Assembly (NCBI GenBank): GCA_964632375.1
Contig: CAZWBO010000002.1
Span: 1-46,313, forward strand
Length of the DNA stretch: 46,313 nt
DNA from: an uncultured Candidatus Peribacteria bacterium
GTDB lineage: Bacteria > Patescibacteriota > Gracilibacteria > Peribacterales > Peribacteraceae
Direction of reading: 5' to 3'
A program made the translations under genes and the position numbers. Below, piece by piece: positions 4,592 to 41,614 of the stretch. The first letter of the stretch is position 1. Every line of letters starts with the position of its first letter. The notes under the pieces were generated by a model that made no database searches, had not been told where the DNA came from, and was given only the letters and a program-made list of their open reading frames with translations.

Positions 4592-4635
4592 AGCGTTCGG
4601 ATGCTAGCGGTTGGTGAACGGATGTTCACTTGCGA

Positions 4636-4719
4636 GTTTGTAGTTTGTAGTTTGTAGTCGGTAGTCGGCAGTCGGCAGTCGGCAGTCGGCAGTCGGCAGT
4701 CGGCAGTCGGCAGTCGGCG
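4636..4719. repeat. 12-unit heptamer tandem array (3x GTTTGTA, 1x GTCGGTA, 7x GTCGGCA, 1x GTCGGCG)
   Basis: Direct reading shows a perfect 7-nt period over 84 nt. The array is immediately followed by TATAAT at 4720-4725. Confidence 0.9.
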
Positions 4720-4740
4720 TATAATATTGCCCCTCTTCTA

Positions 4741-4770
4741 CAGACTAAAGACTACCAACTACCGACTAAT
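4741..4770. repeat. inverted partial copy of the 4636-4719 heptamer array
   Basis: CAGACTAAAGACTACCAACTACCGACTAAT is the reverse complement of GTCGGTA/GTTGGTA/GTCTTTA-type heptamers. CTACCGACTA can pair with TAGTCGGTAG in the array. Confidence 0.7.
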
Positions 4771-4784
4771 CCCCCGTCTTTTGC

Positions 4785-6082: not shown

Positions 6083-8368
6083 ATGTCGTACCTATTTCCC
6101 ATCATTTTTATGTCCTCTCTCGCAGAGAAAGACCACGAGTACTTGCTCGAGCTCGGCAATCAGACGCTGATTGTGAAGACGGGCGCGCTGGCCACGCAGG
6201 CCAATGCCACCATCATCGCGCAGATCGGCGACACGGTCTGCATGGGCAACACCACCATCAGCGCCGAGCCGCGCGCGGGCATCGATTTCCTGCCGCTGCA
6301 GCTGGTGTACCAGGAGAAGTTCTACGCCGGCGGCAAGATCGGCGGGAGCCGCTTCCGCAAGCGCGAAGGCCGCCCGAGCGACGACGCCATCCTGCTCGGC
6401 CGCGTCATCGACCGCGGCATCCGCCCGATGGTCGACAAGAACGTGCGCAACGACATCCAGATCTTCTGCACCGTCCTCAGCTACGATTTCGAGAACGAGC
6501 ACGACATCGTCTCGGCCAATGCGGCGAACCTGTCCATCGCACTGTCGGATTGTCCGTTCGAAGGCGTACTCGGCACGGTGCGCGTCGGCCTCATCGGCGG
6601 CGAGCTGGTGCTGAATCCGTCGCGCGAGGCGCGCACGCGCTGCGATCTCGATATGCTGCTCACGGCGTCGCTCGACCGCGTGGTGATGATCGAAGCCGGC
6701 GCCAACCAGGTGTCCGAGGCAGAGATCGTCCGCGCCATCGACTTCGGCAAGAAGTGGGCGCAGAAAATCGCGCGCTTCTTCGCGGATATCCAGAAGGAGA
6801 TGGGCCGCCAGAAGTTCGTGGTCGAGAAGCCGTTCATGCACGAGGAGGGCTACAAGTTTCTCGAGGCGTTGGTGCTGCCCACCGTCAACAAGGCCGTCAA
6901 AGACAAGCTCCGCAAAGGCGAGCGCCGCGCCATCTTCAACGATCTGATGAAGCAGGCGAAGGAGAAGCTCAAAGAGAAATTCGAGGGATCCGTCACCGAC
7001 GGGAACCGTGAGGAGATGGAGAAATTATTCAGCTACGGATCGGCCTTCATCGACAAGATCATCAAAGCCGAAGTGCGCCGCCTGGTGCTGGAGGAAGGCC
7101 TCCGCATGAGCAGCCGCAAGGTTGACGAGATCCGCCCGCTGGCTGCCCTCATCGACGTGCTGCCCACGCGCGTGCACGGTTCGGCGCTGTTCGAGCGCGG
7201 CGAGACGCAGGGCCTCACCACCTGCACGTTGGGCGCGCCAGGCGACAAGCAGTTGGTCGAAGGCATGGAAGGCGAGCACAAGCTGCGCTACATGCACCAC
7301 TACAACTTCCCGCCGTTCTCGGTGGGCGAGACGACCAACCGCCTCATGGTGGGCAACCGCGAGATCGGCCACGGCGCCCTGGCGCAGCGCGCCCTCGAAC
7401 CCGTGCTGCCGAAAGAAGTCGACTTCCCGTACACCATTCGTACCGTCACGGAGATCCTCAGTTCCAACGGATCCTCCTCCATGGCCGCGACGTGCGGCTC
7501 CACGCTGGCGCTGATGGCGGCGGGCGTCCCCATTGCGGCACCCGTATCAGCCATTGCACTTGGGCTGATGTCCGACGAGGCGAAGGATCAGTACGTCATC
7601 CTCACCGATTTGCAGGATGAAGAGGATTTCGGCGGCGACATGGACTTCAAAGTCGGCGGCACCGAGAAGGGCGTCACGGCTATCCAGATGGATATCAAGA
7701 TCAAAGGCCTGCCGGACCACGTGTTCGCCGAGGCGCTGGAAAAGGCGCGCGTCGGCCGTCTGCACGTGCTGCAGGTGATGCTCGGCGCCATCGCCGAGCC
7801 GCGCAAAGAGCTAAGCCCGTACGCGCCGCGCATCGAGACCATGCAGATCAATCCGGAGGATATTCGTCTCGTCATCGGCAAGGGCGGCGAGACCATCCAG
7901 AAGATCACCGGCGAGTTGGGCGTGGAGATCGACATCGAGGACAGCGGCATCCTGTTCATCACCTCCGCCAACGGCGAGGCGATGGCCAAGGCGCGCGAGT
8001 GGATCGAGGGGATCGTGGCCAAGCCGGAGATCGGCAAGGTTTACAAGGCGAAAGTGACGCGCATCATCGACGGCGTGGGAGCCATCGTGGAATTCCTGCC
8101 CGGCAAAGACGGCATGGTCCACATCTCCGAGCTGGCCTGGGGCCGCACCGAGAACGTGGAAGACGTGCTCAAGATGGGCCAGGAAGTCGACGTGAAAGTC
8201 ATCGAGTACGATGCCCAGGAAGGCAAGACGCGCCTGTCGCTCAAGCAGATGACGACTCCGCCCGAAGGCTACGTACCGCCGGCGCGCGGGGGCTTCGGAG
8301 GCGGACGGCCAGGCGGGCATGGCGGACGGCCTGGTGGGGGCGGATTCCGGGGCGGGCCGCGACGGTAA
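6083..8368 (+). CDS. pnp: polyribonucleotide nucleotidyltransferase (PNPase)
   Basis: 761 aa with two RNase PH domains, a KH domain (IGKGGETIQKITGELGVEIDIED) and an S1 domain (GKVYKAKVTRIIDGVGAIVEFLPGKDGMVHISELA). It carries an extra Gly/Arg-rich C-terminal tail. An alternative start is the ATG at 6110. Confidence 0.95.
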   Translation: MSYLFPIIFMSSLAEKDHEYLLELGNQTLIVKTGALATQANATIIAQIGDTVCMGNTTISAEPRAGIDFLPLQLVYQEKFYAGGKIGGSRFRKREGRPSDDAILLGRVIDRGIRPMVDKNVRNDIQIFCTVLSYDFENEHDIVSANAANLSIALSDCPFEGVLGTVRVGLIGGELVLNPSREARTRCDLDMLLTASLDRVVMIEAGANQVSEAEIVRAIDFGKKWAQKIARFFADIQKEMGRQKFVVEKPFMHEEGYKFLEALVLPTVNKAVKDKLRKGERRAIFNDLMKQAKEKLKEKFEGSVTDGNREEMEKLFSYGSAFIDKIIKAEVRRLVLEEGLRMSSRKVDEIRPLAALIDVLPTRVHGSALFERGETQGLTTCTLGAPGDKQLVEGMEGEHKLRYMHHYNFPPFSVGETTNRLMVGNREIGHGALAQRALEPVLPKEVDFPYTIRTVTEILSSNGSSSMAATCGSTLALMAAGVPIAAPVSAIALGLMSDEAKDQYVILTDLQDEEDFGGDMDFKVGGTEKGVTAIQMDIKIKGLPDHVFAEALEKARVGRLHVLQVMLGAIAEPRKELSPYAPRIETMQINPEDIRLVIGKGGETIQKITGELGVEIDIEDSGILFITSANGEAMAKAREWIEGIVAKPEIGKVYKAKVTRIIDGVGAIVEFLPGKDGMVHISELAWGRTENVEDVLKMGQEVDVKVIEYDAQEGKTRLSLKQMTTPPEGYVPPARGGFGGGRPGGHGGRPGGGGFRGGPRR

Positions 8369-10769: not shown

Positions 10770-11288
10770 TCATCTGATGAGAGGTCTGATATTTTTAATC
10801 GCTGAATTGCAGATATCGAGAACTGGTGCGGCAACACTCATCGCAGCTTGAATGTGCACCGGGAAGCCGAATACAAGCAAACTCTCTCCTTCCTTTAAAA
10901 AAGGTGTCATTCTTGCGTCCGCATGGCTTGCGTCCTGTGACGCAAATTCATAGATGAAATCAACTTTGGTTATCTCTTTTTCGGCAACCTGCATTTTCTC
11001 ATTAAGAAATTCTTGAAGTGTACTTTGTTCTTGTCTGAGTGCTCCAGGAGTAGACACTACTAAGTACTTCTGCTGAGTGTATTTTTCTATGAAGTATAGG
11101 AGAAGGCCCCGATTTCTTTGTTTTTTGTCATCACAAATTAAGGATCGCAGATTTGAAAGAAGTCTCTTGTAAGCTGATAGATTTCCATTTTCAATTTCCA
11201 GATAGGCACTATGAGCTTCCTGGAAGTGTATCTCCAGGTCTTGGAATCTGCGGGTATCAGATCGTTTCTCATACATGGTTATTCTCAT
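10770..11288 (-). CDS. hypothetical protein (low-GC orphan)
   Basis: 172-aa ORF that is markedly more AT-rich than its neighbours. It is convergent with the previous gene, with stops 3 nt apart. No motif recognised. Confidence 0.5.
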   Translation of the reverse strand: MRITMYEKRSDTRRFQDLEIHFQEAHSAYLEIENGNLSAYKRLLSNLRSLICDDKKQRNRGLLLYFIEKYTQQKYLVVSTPGALRQEQSTLQEFLNEKMQVAEKEITKVDFIYEFASQDASHADARMTPFLKEGESLLVFGFPVHIQAAMSVAAPVLDICNSAIKNIRPLIR

Positions 11289-17284: not shown

Positions 17285-17339
17285 GGGGGGATGATACAGG
17301 GAGGTGGTGGGGCGTTCTAAGAAATTGGAGGTGCTACGC

Positions 17340-17472
17340 GAAGATTCCAAGACTGCAAGACTTCAAGATTGCAAATCCTCCTACACCGTCATGGTGAGGC
17401 GCGAGCCGCAGCGAGCCTCGAGCCATTGGCGTTTAGTTTGGCTTATTGCAGTCTTGCAGTCTTGGGATCTTC
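17340..17472. repeat. 133-nt TIR-bounded octamer-repeat element (CAAGACTG family)
   Basis: The left end GAAGATTCCAAGACTGCAAGAC (17340-17361) and right end GTCTTGCAGTCTTGGGATCTTC (17451-17472) are inverted repeats with one mismatch. The interior block TTTGGCTTATTGCAGTC is shared with 23790-23901. Confidence 0.8.
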
Positions 17473-18999
17473 CCTCAGGAGTCGCGGGATCGCCTGGTAC
17501 CGGTACTCTTTCCCCAGCAAAATTGTGATAGTGCCGAGGCCCGTTTGGTCGAGCTCAGGTGGCGGTGTGGGCGCAACCGGAATATGGAGGAGATTGCTGA
17601 AGAACGGCGCCAGAGTCTGGCCGGTGCCGGCGCGCGCGACGATCATCGAGCTTTCTTGGTCGGGAATATTGCCGTTGCGGATCTCGTTGAGGTCGAGGCC
17701 GAAGCGGATGAAGTCGCCGGCCAGTGCGCGGGCGTGGCCGCTGGGCGCGCCGGCGTTGAGCACGTCGATGGTCGGATGCTGCAGGAGCACGTCGCGCTGA
17801 GTGAGGAAGAACTGCGTGAAAATGCGTAGAGGTTCCCACGTTTCCATGCCGCTGTAGGGCAGGGGCAGCAAGACGAACGCGCCGCCGAAGTTCTCCATGG
17901 GTGGCGTGTAGAGGAAACCGCCGGCTTCCGACGCGCCGGTGCCCTGGCCGTTCACGTTGTTGATCTGCACGTTGAGGATCTTGTGGCGGTCGATCTCGGT
18001 GCCGAGCTTCGCGGCGCCGACCATCTCGCGCAGCGACATGGTGGTTTCGGTGTTCGTGTTGACGGTATCCCAGAGCGACATAAGGGTCGAAGGGCTCGAG
18101 AGGATGCCTTTCTCCTTTGCGCGCTGCGCGAGTGCGGCCACAATCTGCTGCTGACGCGCAGAGCGGCTGAAGTCGCTAGTGGAGTGGCGGCTTCGCGCGT
18201 ACTTCAGCGCTGTTTCGCCGTCCAGGTGCTGCGGGCCGGCGGCGATGCTGAACGTGACGTAGGAGTAGTTCGGGCCGGGGTATGTGGTGTCGACGATGGC
18301 CGTGGGTACGTCGATATCGATACCACCGAGCGCATCCACCGCGTTCACGAACCCAATGAAGTCGACCTTCACCACGTAGTGGATTTTCACGCCGAACGTG
18401 TCACCCATCTCGCGGGCCAATTCCTTCATGGCTTCCTGCGATGCGGCATTCTTGTCCATGCCTTGCTTGCGCAGGTAGCCCTTGTAGTCGCGATACAGAC
18501 TGTTGACGCGCCCTGCGCCCATTTTGCTCGTGCGGGTGAAATACAGATCGCGCGGAATCGAGATCATCGCCACACTCTTCGTCTTCGTCGCATCGACGCT
18601 CGCGATCATCATGGTATCGGTGAGATTCGCGCCCTGGTGCGATTCGTCGCCCTGGCCGAGCAGCAAAAAGTTCGTGTAGCCGTGCTCGTCGGTGGGCAGT
18701 GTGGAGCCGACGGTGTTGATGATGCCCTTGAGCGTGACGATCTTGAAGTCGAACAGGGCTTTTGCCACGCCGGCCATCAGTAGAAGGGCGAGCAGTATCG
18801 CGATCATCGCGATGCCGATGCGTCTGAGGATCGACTTGCGATGTTCTTTCACCTGCTCTTCCGCCCGTTCTTTGCGATGACGACGGAACCACGCGACGAG
18901 CGGGTAGCCGAATTGCAGTGCAAACAGGGTGTACTTTTGCCACGGGAATTTCTTGCGAGGAGCACGGTACTCACTCACACGTCGGGTCGTGAAGGACAT
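17443..18999 (-). CDS. LytR-CpsA-Psr (LCP) family protein
   Basis: The ORF track gives 17443-19119, and the ATG at 18999 (MSFTTRRV...) precedes a TM helix. The LCP core is LLLGQGDESHQGANLTDTMMIASVD...ISIPRDLY, with a C-terminal LytR_C-like domain. The last ~8 codons and the stop lie inside the repeat element. Confidence 0.85.
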   Translation of the reverse strand: MSFTTRRVSEYRAPRKKFPWQKYTLFALQFGYPLVAWFRRHRKERAEEQVKEHRKSILRRIGIAMIAILLALLLMAGVAKALFDFKIVTLKGIINTVGSTLPTDEHGYTNFLLLGQGDESHQGANLTDTMMIASVDATKTKSVAMISIPRDLYFTRTSKMGAGRVNSLYRDYKGYLRKQGMDKNAASQEAMKELAREMGDTFGVKIHYVVKVDFIGFVNAVDALGGIDIDVPTAIVDTTYPGPNYSYVTFSIAAGPQHLDGETALKYARSRHSTSDFSRSARQQQIVAALAQRAKEKGILSSPSTLMSLWDTVNTNTETTMSLREMVGAAKLGTEIDRHKILNVQINNVNGQGTGASEAGGFLYTPPMENFGGAFVLLPLPYSGMETWEPLRIFTQFFLTQRDVLLQHPTIDVLNAGAPSGHARALAGDFIRFGLDLNEIRNGNIPDQESSMIVARAGTGQTLAPFFSNLLHIPVAPTPPPELDQTGLGTITILLGKEYRYQAIPRLLREDPKTARLQ

Positions 19000-21845: not shown

Positions 21846-22037
21846 GTGAACACGAAAATGCGTCAACACTCAGCACGCTACCCCCTCACTATGTACCAAT
21901 ACTTCTCGCAACTCGCCGCGCTCGGGTCCGTCCGCTACCGCCACATCGAACGCCTGCGCAAGCGCCGCCCCGCCATGGCGCGGAAGGCGGTGGAGGAAGA
22001 GATGATGGAGGAGACGGATGAAGAGGCGGTGATGTGA
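21846..22037 (+). CDS. small hypothetical protein
   Basis: 63-aa ORF with a strong G/C bias at third codon positions, a basic centre and an acidic tail. The start may instead be at 21891. Confidence 0.35.
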   Translation: MNTKMRQHSARYPLTMYQYFSQLAALGSVRYRHIERLRKRRPAMARKAVEEEMMEETDEEAVM

Positions 22038-22049
22038 GGGGTGAGGTTT

Positions 22050-22215
22050 GAGTCTTGAATTTTGAGTCTTCAAGAGCGATAAGCGGATAGCGGATAGCGG
22101 ATAGCGATAAGCATCTTGCTGAGGATTGCTTCAAGCCTGAGTGCCATCTCTCATTTGCAGTCTTGCATTCTTGCAGTCTTGCAATCTTTCGTTACCGGCC
22201 CTTCAAGATTCAAAA
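22050..22215. repeat. ~165-nt composite dispersed repeat, copy 1
   Basis: Layout: GAGTCTTG-type inverted end, GCGGATA heptamers, the ~45-nt core GCTGAGGATTGCTTCAAGCCTGAGTGCCATCTCTCATTTGCA, TTGCAGTC/TTGCAATC octamers, then a CAAGATTC end. It aligns by eye at roughly 90 percent with 26297-26460. Confidence 0.85.
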
Positions 22216-22241
22216 AGCCCTCCCGAAGGAGGGCTTTTTGC
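22211..22241 (-). terminator. rplL intrinsic terminator (bidirectional)
   Basis: AAAAAGCCCTCC-cgaa-GGAGGGCTTTTT, 17 nt beyond the rplL stop. Confidence 0.85.
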
Positions 22242-22257: not shown

Positions 22258-22662
22258 TCACTTGAGAGTGACCTTCGCGCCGGCCTCTTCGAGCTTCTTC
22301 TTCATTGTCTCGGCGTCGGCCTTGGGTACGCTTTCCTTCACCATCTTGGGAGCGCCGTCGACCATCGCCTTGGCATCGCCGAGGGCGAGGCCGGTGATCT
22401 CGCGGACCACCTTGATGACGGCGATCTTCTGCGCGCCGGAATCGGTGAGCTCCACGTTGTAGGCGCTCTTCTCTTCGGCTGCTGCTGCATCACCGCCAGC
22501 GGCGGGAGCTGCTGCGACGGCGACAGGAGCGGCGGCGGAGATGCCGTACTCCTGTTCCATGAACTTCACGACGTTGTTGAGCTGAATCACGTTCAGCTTC
22601 TCGAGGGAGGAGATCACTGCTTTCTCGTCGGCGGAAAGCTCGATCGTGGCGGTATCGGCCAT
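22258..22662 (-). CDS. rplL: 50S ribosomal protein L7/L12
   Basis: 134 aa with an Ala-rich hinge and the C-terminal domain [27 protein letters not shown]...[14 protein letters not shown]. Confidence 0.95.
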
Positions 22663-23577: not shown

Positions 23578-23789
23578 ACAAAAACGCTGGCTCCGGTTGC
23601 CCGGGAGACCAGCGAGGAACACGGCACGAATCACCAAGCCGAAGCCGAGTGGCCGATGCTGTATTCCTCGGAGGGGCTTATGTCGGTCTGCGACCTTGTG
23701 CCCTCGGTCTTCGGACGTGCGAGAAGTGTAACCATAATTGGGAGGAGGTCAAGGGAGAATGGTAAGAAAGTACCGTAAAGGCGTCTTGG

Positions 23790-23901
23790 GAGAAAAGAAT
23801 TCAAGACTGCAAGAATGCAAGATTGCAAAGAAATCCCAAGATTCGATCTTTTGGTATGTGGTTTGGCTTATTGCAGTCCTGCAGTCTTGAATTCTTTTCT
23901 C
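23790..23901. repeat. 112-nt TIR-bounded octamer-repeat element (CAAGACTG family)
   Basis: Left end GAGAAAAGAATTCAAGACTGCAAG (23790-23813) and right end CTGCAGTCTTGAATTCTTTTCTC (23879-23901). About 22 nt are perfectly inverted. The interior TTTGGCTTATTGCAGTC is shared with 17340-17472. Confidence 0.85.
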
Positions 23902-23928
23902 CGACCGATAAGTGTCTATCATGCTCCC

Positions 23929-24400: not shown

Positions 24401-26305
24401 ATGAACGAGACGATCTCCTCTCCGCTGGCTGTCATCCTCCAAGAACTCCGCCTGCGGAAGGTGGCGACTCCGCGGGTGGAAGCGGCGTTTCGCCTGGCGA
24501 TGGATTTCTGCGTCGACACGATGCACTGGGTGGGGATCTCCACTGCAGATCACGTGGAGAGAGTGCTGCGAACGCTGCTCGCATTCGAGCCGGACGAAGA
24601 TGCGCTCATCGCCTGCGTGCTGCACCATACGCTGGACAGCAAGCGCGTGACGCTCATGGACATCGAGGAGCAGTATGGCCACACCGTGCGGTCGCTCGTG
24701 AGCGGGGTGCATCTCTTATCGCAGGTGCAGCTGCAGACGAGCCGCCATTCCGTGCAGCATCTGCGCATGATGCTCTTGAGCGTGACGGACGACGTGCGCG
24801 TGCTGCTCATCATCCTGTGCGATCGTGCTTCGCTCCTCGAGGAACTGCCGCGCGCGTCGGACGAGGATCGAAAATGGATCTGTCAGAATGTCTTGCACCT
24901 GTTCGCGCCCGTCGCTTCCCGGCTCGGCATCCACACACTCAAGCAGCGCATGGAGAATTCGGCATTCCCCATTCTGTATCCCAACGACAGCGCGCTCATT
25001 CAGACACAGCTGGAACACGTGCATACGCGGTACGCGAACTTCCTGCCAGAGGTGTCGGCGCAGCTGCGCAATGCCTTGGCGGATCAGGGGATTGCGGCTG
25101 CGGTTGATGGGCGCGAGAAAAACCCGTACAGCATCTTCGTGAAGATGCGGAACAAAAGCGTCTCCGACATCGAGCGGCTGCACGATCTGTTTGCGCTGCG
25201 GATCATCGTCGAGACGGAGGAAAACTGTTACCGGGCGCTCGGCGTGGTGCATCAGTTGGGAAGACCTGCTGCCAATCGGTTCAAAGATTACATCGCCTTC
25301 CCCAAGCCGAACGGTTACCGCAGCCTCCATACGACCATGGCGCGGTTCCCGGGCGTGCCGGAAGGGATTTTCACGGAAGTCCAGATCCGCACGGAAGCCA
25401 TGCACCGCGAGGCGGAATTCGGCATCGCCGCGCACTGGCACTACAAGGAACGCGGGTCGGCCGTGCGCGTGGTCGACAGCGTGCAGCTGCAGGAGGTTCT
25501 CTCTAAGCAGCACGATTTCGGGCAGGAGGAAGATACCGCCGGCATCATCAGCGATCACATTTACGTCCTCACCCCGTCGGGCGACATCGTCGAATTGCCG
25601 GAGGGGGCCACGCCGCTCGATTTTGCCTTCCAGATCCACACCGACCTTGGATTGTCGTTCAAGTCTGCGCGCGTGAACGGCAGCATTGTGCCGCTCACGT
25701 ACGAGCTCGAGAACGGCGATGTGGTCGAGATCGTGCGCAACCGCACGCCCCAGCCGTCGCCGGAATGGCTCAAGCTCGTGAAGATGGCCTCGTCGCGCAC
25801 GCGGCTCAAGCACTACCTGCACTCGCTCAATCGCGGGGAGTACGTCGCGCGCGGGCGCATGCTCCTCAACGAGGAATTCCAGAAGCTGCACCACGTACCT
25901 CTCGATACCGATCTCACGGCCCTGCGTCTGTACGAGGGCACCGTGCTCTCGGTGCACGAGCGTGAAGATCTCCTCATGAAAATCGGCCAGGGGTCGGAGC
26001 GTTCCTCTGCGGTGCTTCCGCATCTCGATGCGCTCCGTCCACTGCTTCAGCAGCGCGAGAAGCAGAAGAAAGTGAAGGCGCATCCCTCGGCGTTGGGTTT
26101 GGTGATCGACGGGGGACTGCCCATGCCCGTCCGCTTCGCCAAGTGCTGTAAGCCCGACGAGCTGCGCGAGGGCGGCATCGTCGGTATCGTCACGCGAAAC
26201 GGCCGCATCACCGTGCACCGGGAAGGATGCAGGATGATCCGCTTGGCGAACACGGAAAGGAAGGTGGGAATGCGGTGGGAGGAAAAGAGGGAGAATGAAT
26301 CTTGA
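24401..26305 (+). CDS. relA: RelA/SpoT-family (p)ppGpp synthetase, hydrolase motif degenerate
   Basis: 634 aa. The synthetase core is GREKNPYSIFVKM...FALRIIV...RFKDYIAFPKPNGYRSLHT...EVQIRTEAMH. The TGS domain (YVLTPSGDIVELPEGATPLDFAFQIH) and a C-terminal ACT-like domain are present. The HD-region motif reads LHH...DSK instead of LHD...EDT. Confidence 0.92.
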   Translation: MNETISSPLAVILQELRLRKVATPRVEAAFRLAMDFCVDTMHWVGISTADHVERVLRTLLAFEPDEDALIACVLHHTLDSKRVTLMDIEEQYGHTVRSLVSGVHLLSQVQLQTSRHSVQHLRMMLLSVTDDVRVLLIILCDRASLLEELPRASDEDRKWICQNVLHLFAPVASRLGIHTLKQRMENSAFPILYPNDSALIQTQLEHVHTRYANFLPEVSAQLRNALADQGIAAAVDGREKNPYSIFVKMRNKSVSDIERLHDLFALRIIVETEENCYRALGVVHQLGRPAANRFKDYIAFPKPNGYRSLHTTMARFPGVPEGIFTEVQIRTEAMHREAEFGIAAHWHYKERGSAVRVVDSVQLQEVLSKQHDFGQEEDTAGIISDHIYVLTPSGDIVELPEGATPLDFAFQIHTDLGLSFKSARVNGSIVPLTYELENGDVVEIVRNRTPQPSPEWLKLVKMASSRTRLKHYLHSLNRGEYVARGRMLLNEEFQKLHHVPLDTDLTALRLYEGTVLSVHEREDLLMKIGQGSERSSAVLPHLDALRPLLQQREKQKKVKAHPSALGLVIDGGLPMPVRFAKCCKPDELREGGIVGIVTRNGRITVHREGCRMIRLANTERKVGMRWEEKRENES

Positions 26306-26460
26306 GTTTTGAAGAGCGATAAGCGGATAGCGGATAGCGGTAAGCATATCGCTGAGGGTTGCTTCAAGCGTGAGTGCCATCTCTCATTTGCATTCTTGCA
26401 GTCTTGCAATCTTTCGTCACCGGCTATTCAAGACTCAAGATTCAAAACTCAAGACTCAGC
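26297..26460. repeat. ~165-nt composite dispersed repeat, copy 2
   Basis: Same modular layout and core (GCTGAGGGTTGCTTCAAGCGTGAGTGCCATCTCTCATTTGCA) as 22050-22215. The left end overlaps the last relA codons, and the right end abuts the tig stop. Confidence 0.85.
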
Positions 26461-26462
26461 CC

Positions 26463-27737
26463 TCATCCCAGCATTTCCACTACGAACTTCTCCACTTTCC
26501 TGCGCCAGCGCAGCTGCTCAAACTGCTCGGTGCCGGGGACGAAGCGGGGCATCTGCGCGCGCTCTTCGGGTGAGGCCGACGCTTGGGTGTCGGCGACGAG
26601 CTTCTCGATCTCCTCGTCCGTCACCTCGATGTTCTTCTGCTTGAGTGCTTCCTCGAGCCCGAACCGCAGCGTGAGGCGTTTGACGGCCTGTTCGCGCATC
26701 TCCTTCTGGAGCGATGCCTCGTCGCGTTGGGTCTGCTGTATCCAGTCTTCGATGGTCGCATTCTGCTGTTGCAAGCGGTCGCGCAGGTCGAGCAGGATGG
26801 CGCGCGCCTCCTGCTCCACGAGCTCGTCGGCGAGTTCCACCTTCGTGGCGTTCACGAGCGCGTCGAAGAGTTCCTCTTCGCGCTTCTGGCTCAACAATCC
26901 CTGCTCTTGCTCCTTCATCGAATCCTCTAACCTTTTGCGCACGTCGGCGGCGGAATCGGCCTGCAAGTTCTGCTTGGCGAACTCGTCCGTCAGTTCCGGC
27001 TTTCTCACTTCCTCCACTTTTACAACCTTCACGTTGAACGTGGCGGGCTTCCCGCGCAGGTGCTCGGCATGGTACTTCTCGGGGAAGGTGATCGAAAAAC
27101 TCTTCTCCTGCCCTTTGCTCAGTCCCTTCAGTTCATCCTCGAAGCCGGGGATCAGCGTCTTGCTGCCGATGACGGCCTGGTAGCCGCTCGAGCGCGTGCC
27201 GGGGATTTCGTTCTTCTGCTCGTCGACACCCACGAAATCCATCGTCACCTGATCGCCCTCGGCGGCGGCGCGATCCACTTCGGTGAGCGTCTTGTGTTGG
27301 TCGAGCACGTAGTCGACCATGCGCTGCACATCTTTCTCGTCCACTTTCGTGTCCTTCTTCTCAATCTTGATGCGATCCAAATTTTTGAGTGTCACCGCGG
27401 GTTTCTCGGCAAACGTCACCTTCACCGTGATCGGCTGCAGGCTCTCGATCTCCACGATCGGCGCGATGATGGGCTTCAGCTGATGCTCCTGCGCCAGCTT
27501 GCCGATCCATTCCGGCAGCAGCAGGCGGACGGTTTCGTCCATCACCGCTTCGTCCTTCAGACGCTCGCGGATCGTCGCAACGGGCGCTTTCCCGGGCCGA
27601 AAACCCGGTACGGACACGTTCTGGCCCATTCGTCGCACGGCGGCTTCCTCGGCTGCGGCGCTCTCCTCCGCGGTGAACGTCAGCCCGAACTGCGTTTTAC
27701 TCTGGGGAAGTTTCTTTGGGTCGGAGATCGTTGGCAT
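26463..27737 (-). CDS. tig: trigger factor
   Basis: 424 aa with the N-terminal ribosome-binding domain motif VPGFRPGKAP, an FKBP-like middle domain and a C-terminal domain. Confidence 0.93.
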   Translation of the reverse strand: MPTISDPKKLPQSKTQFGLTFTAEESAAAEEAAVRRMGQNVSVPGFRPGKAPVATIRERLKDEAVMDETVRLLLPEWIGKLAQEHQLKPIIAPIVEIESLQPITVKVTFAEKPAVTLKNLDRIKIEKKDTKVDEKDVQRMVDYVLDQHKTLTEVDRAAAEGDQVTMDFVGVDEQKNEIPGTRSSGYQAVIGSKTLIPGFEDELKGLSKGQEKSFSITFPEKYHAEHLRGKPATFNVKVVKVEEVRKPELTDEFAKQNLQADSAADVRKRLEDSMKEQEQGLLSQKREEELFDALVNATKVELADELVEQEARAILLDLRDRLQQQNATIEDWIQQTQRDEASLQKEMREQAVKRLTLRFGLEEALKQKNIEVTDEEIEKLVADTQASASPEERAQMPRFVPGTEQFEQLRWRRKVEKFVVEMLG

Positions 27738-27740
27738 GGG

Positions 27741-27775
27741 GAGAATTGAGAATGGAAAATTGAAAATGGAGAATT
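27741..27775. repeat. AT-rich heptamer array, left inverted repeat of the four-helix-bundle cassette
   Basis: GAGAATTGAGAATGGAAAATTGAAAATGGAGAATT. The 16-nt block ATTGAGAATGGAAAAT is identical to the reverse complement of part of 28155-28185. Confidence 0.8.
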
Positions 27776-28127
27776 ACAAGGTGGAACGGGACGTTTTGAT
27801 GATCGCGGTCAGTATGTTGATGATAGCATGGAGATCAGTGCGTAAAGCATCTGTGCTGGCTTCCGCAGTGATTTGCGCGTCCTTGAGGAGACGAAGCCAG
27901 TAATCAGTTTCATGAGATTCTTTGAGGGCGATCGAAAGTTTGGAGATGAAATCCTTCTTACTTTGCGCCTGAAGAGCCTCTTCGACATTCGCTCCGATGC
28001 TTGTTCCCGACTTCAGAATCTGCTGACTCATGACAAACTCCTTTTCCTGAGCAAGTTTTTTAGCAAATTTCACGATGCTCAGAGCAAACGCGTACGTTTT
28101 TTCCTGAATGACGTTCGGCTTCTTCAT
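27774..28127 (-). CDS. four-helix-bundle protein (23S rRNA intervening-sequence protein family, Avd-like)
   Basis: 117 aa with the family pattern ...YAFALSIVKFAKKL...ILKSGTSIGANVEEA...KDFISKLSIALKESHETDYWLRLL. The gene is lower in GC. Confidence 0.85.
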   Translation of the reverse strand: MKKPNVIQEKTYAFALSIVKFAKKLAQEKEFVMSQQILKSGTSIGANVEEALQAQSKKDFISKLSIALKESHETDYWLRLLKDAQITAEASTDALRTDLHAIINILTAIIKTSRSTL

Positions 28128-34429: not shown

Positions 34430-34435
34430 GGGGAT

Positions 34436-34532
34436 GGGAATTGAGAATAGAGAATTGAGAATTGAGAATTGAGAATTGAGAGGTGTCTTGTTGCTGATCA
34501 TTTTCCATTTTCCTTTCTCAATTTTCAATTTC
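34436..34532. repeat. AT-rich heptamer hairpin element (GAGAATT family)
   Basis: The left arm GGGAATTGAGAATAGAGAATTGAGAATTGAGAATTGAGAATTGAGAGG has about 6 units of GAATTGA. The right arm CATTTTCCATTTTCCTTTCTCAATTTTCAATTTC is its imperfect inverted complement. Confidence 0.85.
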
Positions 34533-36897
34533 TATACCGCTCTTCCATTATCCGCGCGAACGCCCGCAGTTTTCTTTTCTCTCGCTTCTGTTTTCGATGG
34601 AAGCCGTAGGCGATCATCGTGAATGCCAGCGCAGCCCACCAGGCGACTGGCGGCAGGCCGGAGCCGGGGTTCTTGGCGCCGGGGTGCATGGTGATGAGCG
34701 GCGGGCGCTCCTGGTCGGGGATCTGCTCGACAGGTGCGGCCGAGAAGCCGTTGCCGGTGGGCGTGCCTTCGCCGATGGCGGCGATGTCCGTCAGTTGTTT
34801 TCCCTCGATGGTGACGGGTACGAGTTGCAGTGAGTATTGCACGCCGGGGAGGAGATCGGTGAGGCGGTACTGCTTGAGGGCGGGGTTGATGACGCGCTGT
34901 TCGCTGAGATCGTCCGGCGAGGCGCCGAACTTCACGATGAACGCGCCGAGGGTCGGGGCATTGGGGAAATCCCACGCCAGAGTGAGTGCGCTGTCGCCCG
35001 GTATCACTTGGAGCTTGATGCCATCCGGCACCGCCGAGACGGTCGTGCTCTTCTGCGTGCTCTCGCGGTTGCCGAGCAGGCCCGTGACGGCGAACAGGTA
35101 GCGCGTGCCGGGCATCAGCCCCTGTACGACGGCCGAGGTCGTGGCATCGGGCGTGTCGATACTCTTGGCGAACACGGGTTCCTGGTTCGTCTCGCTCGCA
35201 TCGGCGTCGCCGATGTAGATGCGGTAGCGTTCCACTTGGTCGCTCGAAGCGGTCCAGTGGAGTTTGACGGCGTTGATCTGCGGTTCGGCCTGCACGTTCT
35301 GCACCTGTGCGAGCCCTTTCGGCACCACCGTGAGCGACGACTCGAAGGTGCCGGCGTTGCCCGCTTCATCCGTCGCGGTGGTGATGACGGAATACGTGTC
35401 CTCGCGCGCCGGCGCCACAAAGAGCGCTTGGTACAGGCTTGGCGAGGAGGGGTTTTGCGTGAACAAAACGGTCTGTCCGTCGACGACGAGCGCGACGCTC
35501 TTGATGTCGGTGTCGCTCAGCTGCGTCATGGCCAGTACGTTGGCGCCGGCCTCGGGCGAGGGCGGCGAGAAGGTGACGCCGCGCACCGACGGGCCCGTGG
35601 CATCCACGGTGACGGTGACGGTCGCGGGCGTGAGGAAATTCTGCTGATCGGAAACTTTCATCGTCGCCTGCGTGCTGCCCGGCGCGAGCTGCACGTACGC
35701 GGCGAAGTTTCCTTCGGCGTCGCTCTGCGTCGTTACCGGCGAGGTGCCGCCTTCGACCGTGAGGTTCGTGAGCGGTGCGGCCTTGCCTGTCACCTGCACT
35801 TGCAACCCTGCCACCGCCGAGCGCGGCGAGAGGATCTCGATGCGGCCGCTGGTGCCGGCGTCCCCGGTGGAGTTGGCGATGATCTTCGCGCTGCCACTGA
35901 TGCTCGGATTGCTGGTGTCTTCCACGTGGATCTCGTGCAGGCCGGCCTGCGTGAAGGTGAGTGCGGCCGGGACGTTGAGATCGCCCTGCGACTGCACGAG
36001 GAACTTCAGTTTTCCGTACCCGTCGCGGTCGGTGTCGATGCCGGGGAGGATGGCGTTGGCGTCGTTGCTCACCGACACGTAGACGGAGCCCGTGTAGTCC
36101 GGCACCAGGTTGCCCTGCGCATCCACCGCGCGGATGCTGAAGGCGAAAGGTTCCTTGAGCGTGGCGATCTTCGGCAGTGTCAGTTCGAATCCTTTGATGA
36201 CGCTCTGCGCGTGTGCCGTCGGCACGATGCTCGCGATCAGCGCGTCGCCGCCCATGGCGGCCATGCCGCCGGTCCACAGCGTGGCGCGCGCGTCGACAAC
36301 GGTGTTGCTGAGCAGATCGAGCGCGGTGAGCGTGGTCTGTCCGGCTTCGCGCACCTGCACCGAGAAGCGCTGCATACCCGCGGCATCCGTCAGATCCGTC
36401 AGCTGTGTCACCGTGTCGCTCGGGCGGGTGGCCACCAGGTGCACCGGCCGGCCGGCGAGGGGATTCGCGTAGCGGTCGCGCAGCGTCACGCGCACTTCCG
36501 TCGTTTGGCCCGCGCTCACCTGCGTCTGCTGCGCCTCCACCGCGGAGTTCTGCGCGTCCACGGCGCCGGGCTTCACGGCGAAGTGCGCCGAGGCGGGGAG
36601 CGGTACGCTCTGCTGTTCCACGGTTACTTCGTACACGCCCGCTTCCTCCAATGCATTACCGGGGATGCTCACGCTCGCGTTGCCGTTCGCGTCGACCTGT
36701 GTAGAAAGAGGAACGTCGGCGCCGGATGGGGAACGCACGACAATGTCGGCATCACCGGCGGCCAAGCCCGACGCGTGAACAGTCGTGGCGAGACCGGCGA
36801 ACGTGTCGCTCGCCTGGATCGAGCCCACGGCCAAGGCCGGGAGCGGCGCCGCGCACAAGCTGACAGCGAGCGTGATGGCGAAGAGTTGTTTGTGCAT
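34525..36897 (-). CDS. large cell-surface protein with Ig-like/fibronectin-III-like repeats and C-terminal TM anchor
   Basis: The ATG at 36897 gives the signal peptide MHKQLFAITLAVSLCAAPLPALA. Beta-rich repeat domains follow, some FN3-like (VKLHWTASSDQVERYRIY...). The C-terminal TM helix PPVAWWAALAFTMIAYGF is followed by a basic tail. Confidence 0.75.
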   Translation of the reverse strand: MHKQLFAITLAVSLCAAPLPALAVGSIQASDTFAGLATTVHASGLAAGDADIVVRSPSGADVPLSTQVDANGNASVSIPGNALEEAGVYEVTVEQQSVPLPASAHFAVKPGAVDAQNSAVEAQQTQVSAGQTTEVRVTLRDRYANPLAGRPVHLVATRPSDTVTQLTDLTDAAGMQRFSVQVREAGQTTLTALDLLSNTVVDARATLWTGGMAAMGGDALIASIVPTAHAQSVIKGFELTLPKIATLKEPFAFSIRAVDAQGNLVPDYTGSVYVSVSNDANAILPGIDTDRDGYGKLKFLVQSQGDLNVPAALTFTQAGLHEIHVEDTSNPSISGSAKIIANSTGDAGTSGRIEILSPRSAVAGLQVQVTGKAAPLTNLTVEGGTSPVTTQSDAEGNFAAYVQLAPGSTQATMKVSDQQNFLTPATVTVTVDATGPSVRGVTFSPPSPEAGANVLAMTQLSDTDIKSVALVVDGQTVLFTQNPSSPSLYQALFVAPAREDTYSVITTATDEAGNAGTFESSLTVVPKGLAQVQNVQAEPQINAVKLHWTASSDQVERYRIYIGDADASETNQEPVFAKSIDTPDATTSAVVQGLMPGTRYLFAVTGLLGNRESTQKSTTVSAVPDGIKLQVIPGDSALTLAWDFPNAPTLGAFIVKFGASPDDLSEQRVINPALKQYRLTDLLPGVQYSLQLVPVTIEGKQLTDIAAIGEGTPTGNGFSAAPVEQIPDQERPPLITMHPGAKNPGSGLPPVAWWAALAFTMIAYGFHRKQKREKRKLRAFARIMEERYRN

Positions 36898-37710: not shown

Positions 37711-37748
37711 GATTGCAATCTTGCAGCCTTGCAATCTTGCATTCTTCC
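37711..37748. repeat. TTGCAATC/TTGCAGCC octamer array
   Basis: GATTGCAATCTTGCAGCCTTGCAATCTTGCATTCTTCC (period 8), directly adjacent to the 3' end of tRNA-Cys. Confidence 0.75.
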
Positions 37749-39188: not shown

Positions 39189-39298
39189 TTGGGATTGATC
39201 GAGCATGGATACATTTGCAGGGGATTTGCCGTGCACACCGAAAGATCGATGTGGACATTGTCTCTCGCCACTTCCTCTGGTACCGTTCCACAAATCCC

Positions 39299-40372
39299 AT
39301 GACGAACCTCGCGTCCATTCCGGCCTCCAAAAACCCGAAGGACTTCGTGATCGCGACGATGGGAAGCCACAGCGCGCTGCAGATTTTGAAAGGCGCGCGC
39401 GACGAGGGCATACGCAACGTGGTGATCTGCAAGAAGGGCAAGGAGAGGCCGTACCAGAGCTACGGCGTAGCCGACGAGATCATCCTCGTCGACGATTGGT
39501 CGGAGTGGAATGACGAGCTCGAAGCCAAGCTGGTCGAGCGCAACGCGATCATCATCCCGCACGGGTCGTTCGTGGCGTACTTGGGGCACGAGCGCATTAA
39601 GACACTCAAGACGATGTACTACGGTACGAAGGAGATTCTGGAGTGGGAATCGAACCGCACGATGGAGCGCGAGTGGCTGCTGAATGCCAAGCTCCAGCTG
39701 CCGCGCGTGTTCCAGAAACCGGAAGACATCGACCGTCCGGTGATCGTGAAGTTCCACGGCGCGGGCGGCGGTTTCGGCTACTTCGTGGCGAAATCGGCCG
39801 AGCAGTTCTACGAGGTGAAGAACCGCAAGTACCCCGACGAGCACGATTTCGTCATCCAGGAGTACATCGTGGGCGTGCCCGTGTACATCCACTACTTCTA
39901 CTCGCCCATCACTGGCGAGCTGGAAATCATGAGCCTCGACAAGCGTTACGAGTCGAATGCCGACAGCATCGGGCGCATCCGCGCCGAGGACCAGTTGGCC
40001 GCCAACATCCACACGAGCTACACCATCGTCGGGAACATCCCCATCGTCATCCGCGAATCGATGCTGCCGGAGCTGTTCGAGATGGGCGAGAACGTGGTGA
40101 GGGAGAGCCGCAAGCTGTGCGGCCCGTCGGACTCAGGACAAACCAATAAGGGTCTCTTCGGTTCCTTCTGCCTCGAGACGATCGTCACGCGCAAATTGCA
40201 GATAGTGGTGTTCGAGATCAGCGCGCGCATCGTCGCCGGCACCAACCCGTTCATCGAAGGGTCGCCCTACACGGCGCTCAAGTACGACGTGCCGATGAGC
40301 ACCGGTCGACGCATCGCCAGAGACATCAAGCAGGCGATTGAGGCGGGGAGGTTGGCGGAAATCTTGGGGTGA
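39299..40372 (+). CDS. purP: archaeal-type FAICAR synthetase (PurP family ATP-grasp)
   Basis: The ATG at 39299 gives 357 aa. It matches the Methanocaldococcus PurP pattern: IATMGSHSALQILKGARDEG...ICKKGKE...VADEIILVDDW...IIIPHGSFVAYLG...WESNR...PEDIDRPVIVKFHGAGGGFGYF...FYSPITGELEIMSLDKRYESN. Confidence 0.85.
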   Translation: MTNLASIPASKNPKDFVIATMGSHSALQILKGARDEGIRNVVICKKGKERPYQSYGVADEIILVDDWSEWNDELEAKLVERNAIIIPHGSFVAYLGHERIKTLKTMYYGTKEILEWESNRTMEREWLLNAKLQLPRVFQKPEDIDRPVIVKFHGAGGGFGYFVAKSAEQFYEVKNRKYPDEHDFVIQEYIVGVPVYIHYFYSPITGELEIMSLDKRYESNADSIGRIRAEDQLAANIHTSYTIVGNIPIVIRESMLPELFEMGENVVRESRKLCGPSDSGQTNKGLFGSFCLETIVTRKLQIVVFEISARIVAGTNPFIEGSPYTALKYDVPMSTGRRIARDIKQAIEAGRLAEILG

Positions 40373-40374
40373 GA

Positions 40375-40460
40375 AATCAGAACACAGAGGGCAGAAAACA
40401 GAGGGCAGAAGTCAGGGGGTTGTGTGTATTTGATTTCTGCCTTCTGACTTCTGCTTTTTT
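40375..40460 (+). terminator. GGCAGAA-family repeat hairpin acting as the purP terminator
   Basis: The direct repeat ACAGAGGGCAGAA occurs twice. The stem GCAGAAGTCAG (40405-40415)/CTGACTTCTGC (40444-40454) is followed by TTTTTT. Confidence 0.6.
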
Positions 40461-40477
40461 CGATTATCCTGTCTCCC

Positions 40478-41614
40478 ATGGACCCCACCTCCCTCCTTTC
40501 CGGTTACGATCAGAAGAATCTTACCGTCGGCGTGCTCGGCGGGCACAGCGCGCTGGATGTCTCGCGCGGGGCGAAGCAGCACGGGTTTCGTACGCTCACG
40601 GTGGCGCGGAAGGGAAGAGAGAAGACGTATACCGAGCACTACAAGACGCGCGGCGAGCGCGGGTGCATCGACGAGACGATCGTGGTCGACGATTTTCACG
40701 ACATCCTGCGGCCCGAGCATCAGGCATCACTGCGCAGCAAGAACACGCTCTTCGTGCACAACCGGTACTTCTGGGTGTACTTCGACGATTTCTCGAAGGT
40801 AGAGACGGGGTTTCAGGTTCCCATCTTCGGCTCGCGCACGCTGCTCAAGCTCGAGGAGCGCGATCAGCCGTACAATCAGTATCACCTCTTGCAGGATGCC
40901 GGCATCCGCACGCCGCAGGTCTTCAGCGATCCCGACCAGATCAACGGACGGCTGTGCATCGTGAAGGCGGCGGAGGCGGCGCGCAGTTACGAGCGCGCGT
41001 TCTTCCTCGTCACCAACAAAACAGAATGGCTCACCGAGGGATCGCGTCTCGAGATCGCGGGCAGGATCGCCAAAGGCTGGGAGAACGCGCTCATCGAGGA
41101 GTTCATCGTGGGGGCGCACGTGAATTTCAACTTCTTCTACTCGCCGCTCACGGGTGAGCTGGAGCTGCTGGGCACCGACATGCGGCGGCAGACGAACCTC
41201 GACGGCTTCCTACGCATGCCGGCGGATCAGCAGATGAAGGTGCTGCAGTACATCGACGTGAAGATGATCGAGACCGGCCACGTGGCGGTGACGGTGAAGG
41301 AATCGATTCTGGAAAAGGCGTACGAGATGGGCTGGAAGTTCGTGCGCGCCACGCAGAAATTGCCGAAGTCGCTGGATCCGACGGGCAAGGGGATCATCGG
41401 GCCGTTCGCGCTGCAGGGCGCGGTGGTGGCGGAGGAAGGGAAAGAAGACATCGTCATCTTCGACGTCAGTTTCCGCATCCCCGGCTCGCCGGGCTTGGCG
41501 GCCACGCCGTACATGCACTACCTGTACGGCAAACCCATGAGCGTGGGCGAGCGCGTGGGCATGGAAATACGGAACGCGGTGGAGAGCAATTGCCTCGAAA
41601 AAATTATTACGTGA
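40478..41614 (+). CDS. PurP-family ATP-grasp paralog
   Basis: 378 aa sharing the family blocks GGHSALDVSRGAKQHG, ARKGREK, IVVDDF and FYSPLTGELELLGTDMRRQTN with the upstream gene, but otherwise divergent. Confidence 0.75.
   Translation: MDPTSLLSGYDQKNLTVGVLGGHSALDVSRGAKQHGFRTLTVARKGREKTYTEHYKTRGERGCIDETIVVDDFHDILRPEHQASLRSKNTLFVHNRYFWVYFDDFSKVETGFQVPIFGSRTLLKLEERDQPYNQYHLLQDAGIRTPQVFSDPDQINGRLCIVKAAEAARSYERAFFLVTNKTEWLTEGSRLEIAGRIAKGWENALIEEFIVGAHVNFNFFYSPLTGELELLGTDMRRQTNLDGFLRMPADQQMKVLQYIDVKMIETGHVAVTVKESILEKAYEMGWKFVRATQKLPKSLDPTGKGIIGPFALQGAVVAEEGKEDIVIFDVSFRIPGSPGLAATPYMHYLYGKPMSVGERVGMEIRNAVESNCLEKIIT

Follow-up and report, generated by a model that had tools for sequence, protein, structure and literature searches.

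The BIMEs of E. coli, in which REP (PU) sequences are combined with linker motifs, and the BOX elements of pneumococci, arranged as boxA-(boxB)n-boxC, are mosaic intergenic repeats, and the Correia elements of Neisseria are an example of miniature transposable elements (MITEs). Intergenic arrays of heptamers are known in cyanobacteria as STRR, and the intervening sequences (IVS) of 23S rRNA contain a long stem, cut by RNase III, within which an ORF for a PF05635 four-helix bundle is located. REPINs are REP doublets that form hairpins (Bertels & Rainey 2011, PMC3116915), and intergenic arrays of the heptamer TAACTGA have been described in Beggiatoaceae, Cyanobacteria and Bacteroidetes (MacGregor 2015, PMC4679880). 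The window analysed here, a complete NCBI contig of 46,313 nt that is ~83% coding and that homologs of trigger factor assign to Candidatus Peribacteria/Peregrinibacteria (CPR), contains a non-coding repeat of ~150-165 nt that we have compared with each of these systems. In our opinion, it is probably a young, lineage-specific and low-copy mosaic that arose within a larger system of array-armed hairpins occupying most spacers of this Peribacteria genome.

The repeat occurs twice, at 22047-22215 (copy A) and 26296-26458 (copy B), with 4.2 kb between the copies and the same orientation in both. An alignment of 22030-22230 with 26280-26480 by MAFFT indicates that the copies are paralogous and display the same order of modules: a GAGTCTT/GAATCTT-type left arm, GCGATAA/GCGGATA heptamers, a unique segment (hereafter, the core), octamers, TTTCGTyACCGGC and a right arm of TCAAGAy units. 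Over the homologous span (22056-22215 in A and 26296-26440 in B), 133 of the 145 aligned bases are identical (91.7%), the remainder being 12 substitutions; the copies further differ by single indels of 7 nt among the GCGGATA heptamers and of 8 nt among the TTGCAGTC octamers, their end arrays are of unequal length, and their flanks are unrelated (38-55% identity). The first-pass annotation of this DNA had described two homologous modular copies with inverted-complement ends and slippage-like differences in unit number, each lying between convergent genes, and all of this is confirmed by the alignment and the gene calls. Its term "dispersed" is unproven, only two copies being known at a short distance from each other; any claim of a family therefore rests on n=2. 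That the two copies arose independently by slippage can be rejected, since 42 nt of unique sequence are common to both.

On the plus strand of copy A, the left arm of GAGTCTT/GAATTTT-type heptamers (22047-22077), which is complementary to the right arm, is followed by the GCGATAA/GCGGATA heptamer array (22077-22113), one 7-nt unit longer than in B, the core GCTGAGGATTGCTTCAAGCCTGAGTGCCATCTCTCATTTGCA (22118-22159), an octamer array composed of TTGCAGTC, TTGCATTC and TTGCAATC with 4.2 units (22155-22188), the segment TTTCGTTACCGGC (22187-22199) and the right arm TTCAAGATTCAAAA (22198-22215). Likewise, copy B consists, on the plus strand, of a left arm (26296-26317) that holds the last three codons of relA and its TGA stop (26303-26305), a GCGATAA/GCGGATA array (26317-26346), the core (26351-26392), an octamer array of 3.2 units (26388-26413), the segment TTTCGTCACCGGC (26412-26424) and a right arm of TCAAGAC/TCAAGAT/TCAAAAC heptamers (26423-26458), which stops 4 nt short of the tig stop codon (26463-26465). 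The consensus of the core over both copies reads GCTGAGGrTTGCTTCAAGCsTGAGTGCCATCTCTCATTTGCA. According to TRF, the AGCGGAT unit is repeated 3.6 times in A and 2.7 times in B, TTGCAGTC 4.2 and 3.2 times, and the TCAAGAC-type unit 3.3 and 4.4 times. The ends are inverted complements over 18 nt in copy A (22060-22077/22198-22215, 83%) and over 22 nt (26296-26317/26423-26444, 91%) or 18 nt (26296-26313/26441-26458, 94%) in copy B.

Such an organization recalls the BIME and BOX elements, which also consist of ordered short modules with variable internal units, often lie at gene 3' ends, can fold into stem-loops within mRNA and encode no protein; the shared module order, the unit indels of 7 and 8 nt and the unequal end arrays are precisely of this kind. 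The two differ nevertheless in scale and in distribution: the units are 7-8-nt tandem repeats here and ~35-45 nt there, and two copies in a CPR host stand against tens to hundreds. Read by eye, the sequences bear no likeness to each other, and the hosts belong to unrelated phyla.

Copy A lies between a small ORF of 63 codons (21846-22037, plus strand), whose ortholog is called at 8042-8191 in a distant relative (L002, see below), and rplL (22258-22662, minus strand). Copy B lies between relA/spoT (24401-26305, plus strand) and tig, which encodes trigger factor (26463-27737, minus strand). Around the copies, Pfam recognizes rplL, rplJ, relA/spoT, tig, secF and a gene for a PF05635 four-helix bundle. 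Directly beyond the rplL stop and outside the repeat, a perfect 13-bp stem, CAAAAAGCCCTCC/GGAGGGCTTTTTG, closed by a loop of 4 nt (22211-22240, either strand), is flanked by A5 and T5 and thus resembles a bidirectional intrinsic terminator. Accordingly, the rplL transcript should end before copy A, and the plus strand of copy A, placed between the small-ORF stop and this hairpin, should form the 3' UTR of the small-ORF transcript. On this layout, the transcripts of relA and of the small ORF would both carry the plus strand of the element in their 3' UTRs. A sigma-70 and terminator scan detected no terminator-like site inside either copy, and the outer stems are AT-rich and devoid of a U-run, unlike the GC-rich stem and U-run of an intrinsic terminator. 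As a terminator follows copy A only, the two copies do not define a consistent transcription unit. It is plausible that the outer stem would provide the converging transcripts with a stem-loop at their ends; against such a role stand the modest scores of the folds and the relA-tig spacer of the nearest relative, which does not fold significantly.

The modules listed by the first-pass annotation are not proper to this element; the array types belong to a system that extends over the whole contig. Of 29 arrays that TRF identified with a period of 7 or 8, 24 are intergenic, and the units include TTGCAGTC, GAGAATT, AGTCGGC, CAGAAGG, TCAAGAC, AGCGGAT and AGTGGGT. This tandem repetition of 7-nt units confined to spacers, often directly upstream of start codons and with a scattered phylogeny, is reminiscent of the TAACTGA and STRR arrays. 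In contrast to those, the named units are absent from the present set, the arrays of this lineage are mostly paired with their own reverse complement as hairpin arms, and several types have been copied together with a unique core as one block. When we scanned the GTDB species representatives for three units of TTGCANTC, at least 109 loci were obtained from Bacteroidales, Longimicrobiales, Chitinophagaceae, Acidobacteria, cyanobacteria and others; the dozen that we read were seemingly non-coding and often located beside other arrays of 7-8 nt. Among the matches listed, an inverted partner array within 500 nt was present at 7 of the 10 loci from the MAG of the nearest relative and at 5 of the 99 loci outside Peribacteria, so the use of arrays as paired hairpin arms looks characteristic of this lineage. 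The idea that octamer arrays travel with PF05635 genes was discarded, as tblastn placed such a gene at one of the 109 listed loci, 1.5 kb away.

Many arrays of the window thus form long hairpins with their own reverse complement, which fold far better than shuffled sequences at 4630-4772 (z -5.5), 17336-17476 (z -6.8), 23785-23906 (z -7.6) and 40372-40460 (z -6.7), and to a lesser extent at 34432-34535 (z -3.5). Array hairpins are found in divergent, co-directional and convergent spacers alike, so a role as terminator is not general. Among them, an octamer-armed hairpin upstream of dtd (23789-23902), with arms TTGCAGTC/GACTGCAA and a small, conserved inner stem CCAAGrG/CyCTTGG, is REPIN-like; its stem reaches 37 bp with four compensatory pairs, the orthologous site is occupied in the nearest relative (L001 7142-7251), and at least six further copies reside there on other contigs (L020, L038, L079, L081, L093 and L094). 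We also noticed a second octamer-armed family, with three copies over two species (17336-17476 in the window, L094 835-985 and L097 5880-6035) and a conserved GC-rich loop of ~60 nt.

Compared with these neighbours, of which those at 4630-4772, 17336-17476, 23785-23906 and 40372-40460 fall between z -5.5 and -7.6, the repeat folds much less well, which weakens a role as an RNA hairpin: copy A is no better than shuffled sequences (z -1.37), and copy B is better than them (z -3.83). The complementarity is restricted to the outer arms (18-22 bp), which enclose ~105-120 nt. In the interior, the GCGGATA array has no complementary partner and the TTGCAGTC octamer array no full partner, and the segment TTTCGTYACCGGC is present. 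The consensus fold of the two plus strands contains 43 pairs with one compensatory change, in the outer stem only, and that of the minus strands contains no compensatory change.

The nearest available relative is the MAG GCA_964618035.1 (hereafter the sister; L001 and other contigs), with a tig product 91% identical in amino acids and syntenic DNA ~82-86% identical; the distant relative L002 is GCA_041691135.1 (tig 71%). The order secF-tig-relA-rplJ-rplL-small ORF is kept in L002, and its secF-tig-relA part in L001. Both relatives lack the element and its core in the relA-tig spacer, which cannot be aligned with copy B. As the sister spacer is unalignable and not simply shorter, i.e., there is no clean empty site, insertion, replacement and loss in the sister would leave the same picture. 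The folding of this spacer is not significant in the sister (z +0.42) and marginal in L002 (z -1.9), so that we rejected the idea of a conserved hairpin at the relA-tig site; given the sister value, a hairpin is not obviously required there. The spacer orthologous to that of copy A was compared in L002 only, where a different strong hairpin (z -6.8) lies between the small ORF and rplL and is followed by a terminator-like rplL hairpin, read by eye. Similarly, the tig-secF spacer consists of GAGAATT arms around a PF05635 gene in the window and of a GTGGGTA-type array hairpin without gene in the sister. The modules of the repeat reappear in the sister in other combinations: GAGTCTT-type arms enclose, together with heptamers of the TATCCGC type, a core of another sequence (L097 2795-2925); one array of the GCGGATA type, at L053 1970-1997, resembles by eye a single hairpin arm; and an octamer array followed by TTCCGTC..ACCGG lies between convergent genes at L105 4199-4256. 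A candidate paralog contig (P0124/L115) was set aside, as it stems from another genome, in which the GC content is 66% and arrays are missing.

Taken together with the fact that the same array types are the paired arms of strong hairpins elsewhere in the contig and in the sister species, these combinations lead us to favour a mosaic origin. In this scenario, the interior of the repeat would be a recombinant of half-hairpins with a unique "cargo" segment, and the composite would have been copied from one convergent-gene spacer to the other at about the time when the lineage separated from its nearest sequenced relative, or later. Most likely, this copying would have proceeded through homologous recombination or gene conversion primed by the array arms common to the spacers, and mobilization in trans of the MITE/REPIN kind could be envisaged as an alternative route. 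The copies would then have diverged through slippage of units and the 12 point substitutions. Located in the relA and small-ORF 3' UTRs, the outer stem could make the polymerase pause or terminate, or could stop 3' exonucleases.

One may also consider the repeat as a MITE- or REPIN-like miniature element in its own right, moved in trans by a transposase or a RAYT encoded elsewhere, with the heptamer-array ends acting as terminal inverted repeats. We hold this to be rather unlikely, despite several features that it accommodates well: non-coding elements of 100-170 nt with inverted ends able to form a long hairpin are typical of MITEs and REPINs, and the repeat is of this size, carries terminal inverted repeats of 18-22 nt (albeit as heptamer arrays of variable length) and sits in two intergenic, non-homologous sites. 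An insertion apparently rewrote the C-terminus of relA and supplied its stop codon; downstream of the motif RWE, the relA C-terminus differs from those of both relatives, all three genomes being different. Furthermore, the related hairpin family 23789-23902 is multi-copy in the sister genome, and it is this neighbouring family, with its hairpin and copy number, that is strongly REPIN-like; in the repeat itself, the complementarity is that of the outer 18-22 bp, the interior is not self-complementary, and two copies are known. A target-site duplication, for which the first-pass annotation had advised looking at the copy boundaries, is not visible by eye at either copy (GTGAGGT/AAGCCCT flank copy A and GGGAGAA/GCCCTCA copy B, without direct repeat); since the ends are arrays of variable length, the termini are not sharply definable and the boundaries are blurred. 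No transposase or RAYT (IS200/IS605-like TnpA) was found by Pfam among the ORFs of the 46-kb contig, and the interior resembles recombined halves of hairpins and not a deleted insertion sequence.

It is tempting, although we regard it as unlikely, to go further and to see in these spacers an undescribed class of hairpins that would draw the tandem units of their arms from a library of 7-8-nt units common to different species, would be swapped faster than the flanking genes diverge and would carry cargo in their loops, such as the 42-nt segment or a PF05635 gene; these hairpins may act as IVS-like RNA stems for processing or insulation (e.g., as substrates of RNase III) or may be bound by a repeat-binding protein. 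In this respect, inverted arrays of the GAGAATT type (27741-27775/28153-28184) enclose in their loop the PF05635 gene of the window (27774-28127, minus strand), which has secF and tig as its neighbours on the same strand. This gene is 1.3 kb from copy B, and its layout of arms plus cargo is that of the repeat. In contrast to an IVS, the cassette stands between protein genes and not in rRNA, and the cargo of the repeat is a non-coding segment of 42 nt, the comparison being one of layout only.

The first-pass annotation had taken the conservation of the core to suggest a functional RNA or a protein-binding site. Under such a reading, the 42-nt core would be the functional part, as a small or 3'-UTR-derived RNA or as a binding site, and the arrays would merely flank it. 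This we deem improbable. A unique sequence common to both copies, in the same orientation and in the same kind of genomic context, would speak in its favour, as would the fold of copy B and a pairing of 7-9 bp between GGATTGC of the core and GCAATCT of the last octamer in the plus-strand consensus, which is kept through an A-to-G substitution in the core (A-U to G-U). The folding evidence is mixed in that copy A yields no significant structure and the sole compensatory pair belongs to the outer stem. Moreover, two of the four core substitutions create in copy B an inner hairpin of 10 bp that is missing in copy A. The core is also less conserved than its surroundings, with 90% identity between the copies (37/41, i.e., 4 of the 12 substitutions, two within the 42 nt and two just upstream), whereas the arrays differ in unit number and are otherwise 100% identical.

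Searches for the core were equally unfavourable to such a function. The 22-mer TGAGTGCCATCTCTCATTTGCA from its centre occurs only at 22138 and 26371 when up to three mismatches are allowed (shuffles expect 0), and the core was encountered nowhere else in the 46-kb contig, in 61 kb of sequence from the sister, including the orthologous relA-tig spacer, or in ~0.75 Mb of loci from relatives and other genomes (nhmmer, blastn-short). The exact 20-mer TGAGTGCCATCTCTCATTTG gave no match in the GTDB species representatives, and its two matches in JGI metagenomes, both in AT-rich unrelated sequence, are due to chance; a 25-mer of the core gave no match in viral contigs, and blastn retrieved nothing from phages and plasmids. 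At the Rfam gathering threshold, the sole match on the whole contig is a tRNA, and at E<=10 neither the core nor copy B receives a credible match; the sub-threshold matches concern the right half of copy A, where they span the adjacent terminator, and, in one weak case, the left arm of copy B. The core contains no sigma-54-like motif, and the sigma-70 scan places no promoter-like site in the element. The repeat contains no conserved ORF, a small peptide of 25 codons on the minus strand of copy A being rejected because it is not kept in copy B. We conclude that the core is under no detectable constraint, the functional evidence being negative or neutral and nothing positive, although tests of constraint and covariation have little power with n=2.

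Finally, it is hardly credible that one copy is an artefact of assembly or binning in which reads of a single repeat were mis-joined, even though the contig is assembled from a metagenome with short repeats and sister contigs often end at such arrays (L001 near arrays), because the copies differ at the 12 positions and by indels of units, both are embedded in unique flanks, and the order of the surrounding genes is the same in the relatives.

The two-copy repeat alone is minor and probably neutral; its interest is rather that of a marker of intergenic evolution in a reduced CPR genome. The spacers of syntenic essential genes (secF, tig, relA, rplJL) have been rebuilt from modules of 7-8 nt within a species-level divergence, usually into long hairpins, and occasionally with the transfer of an entire composite or of a gene. 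Should these hairpins be signals of RNA processing or termination, they would represent a lineage-specific punctuation of operons in hosts with poorly known transcription signals; should they be selfish, even genomes of the ~1-Mb class would tolerate a prolific turnover of repeats. Array hairpins also plausibly explain why related MAGs are fragmented at such sites.

Other features of the window are worth mentioning. On the minus strand upstream of rplJ, a non-coding stretch (~23580-23760) is 91-100% identical to L002 and L001, the flanking genes being 72-85% identical; it comprises a promoter-like site TTGACC-16-TACACT, a conserved leader of ~110 nt and a GC-rich hairpin to which TTTTT is appended (~23585-23614). 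This stretch looks like an attenuator leader of rplJ (L10), and no match to the Rfam L10_leader was obtained for it at E<=10. On the minus strand, an ORF of 172 codons (10770-11288) with 41% GC, in a contig of 59% GC, and with no Pfam match is possibly foreign. Several arrays lie directly upstream of the start codons of tig, rplL and a queF-like gene, with no Shine-Dalgarno sequence visible by eye. At 4635-4768, between rpsO and a divergently oriented 419-aa gene of unknown function, 3.4 units of AGTTTGT and 9 units of AGTCGGC are accompanied by an imperfect inverted partner (z -5.5). An octamer array of TTGCAATC (37713-37746) ends 8 nt from the only tRNA gene of the contig (37755-37826, minus strand). 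At 39215-41614, two tandem DUF1246/DUF1297 paralogs are split by the heptamer-armed hairpin 40372-40460, which is followed by a T-run.
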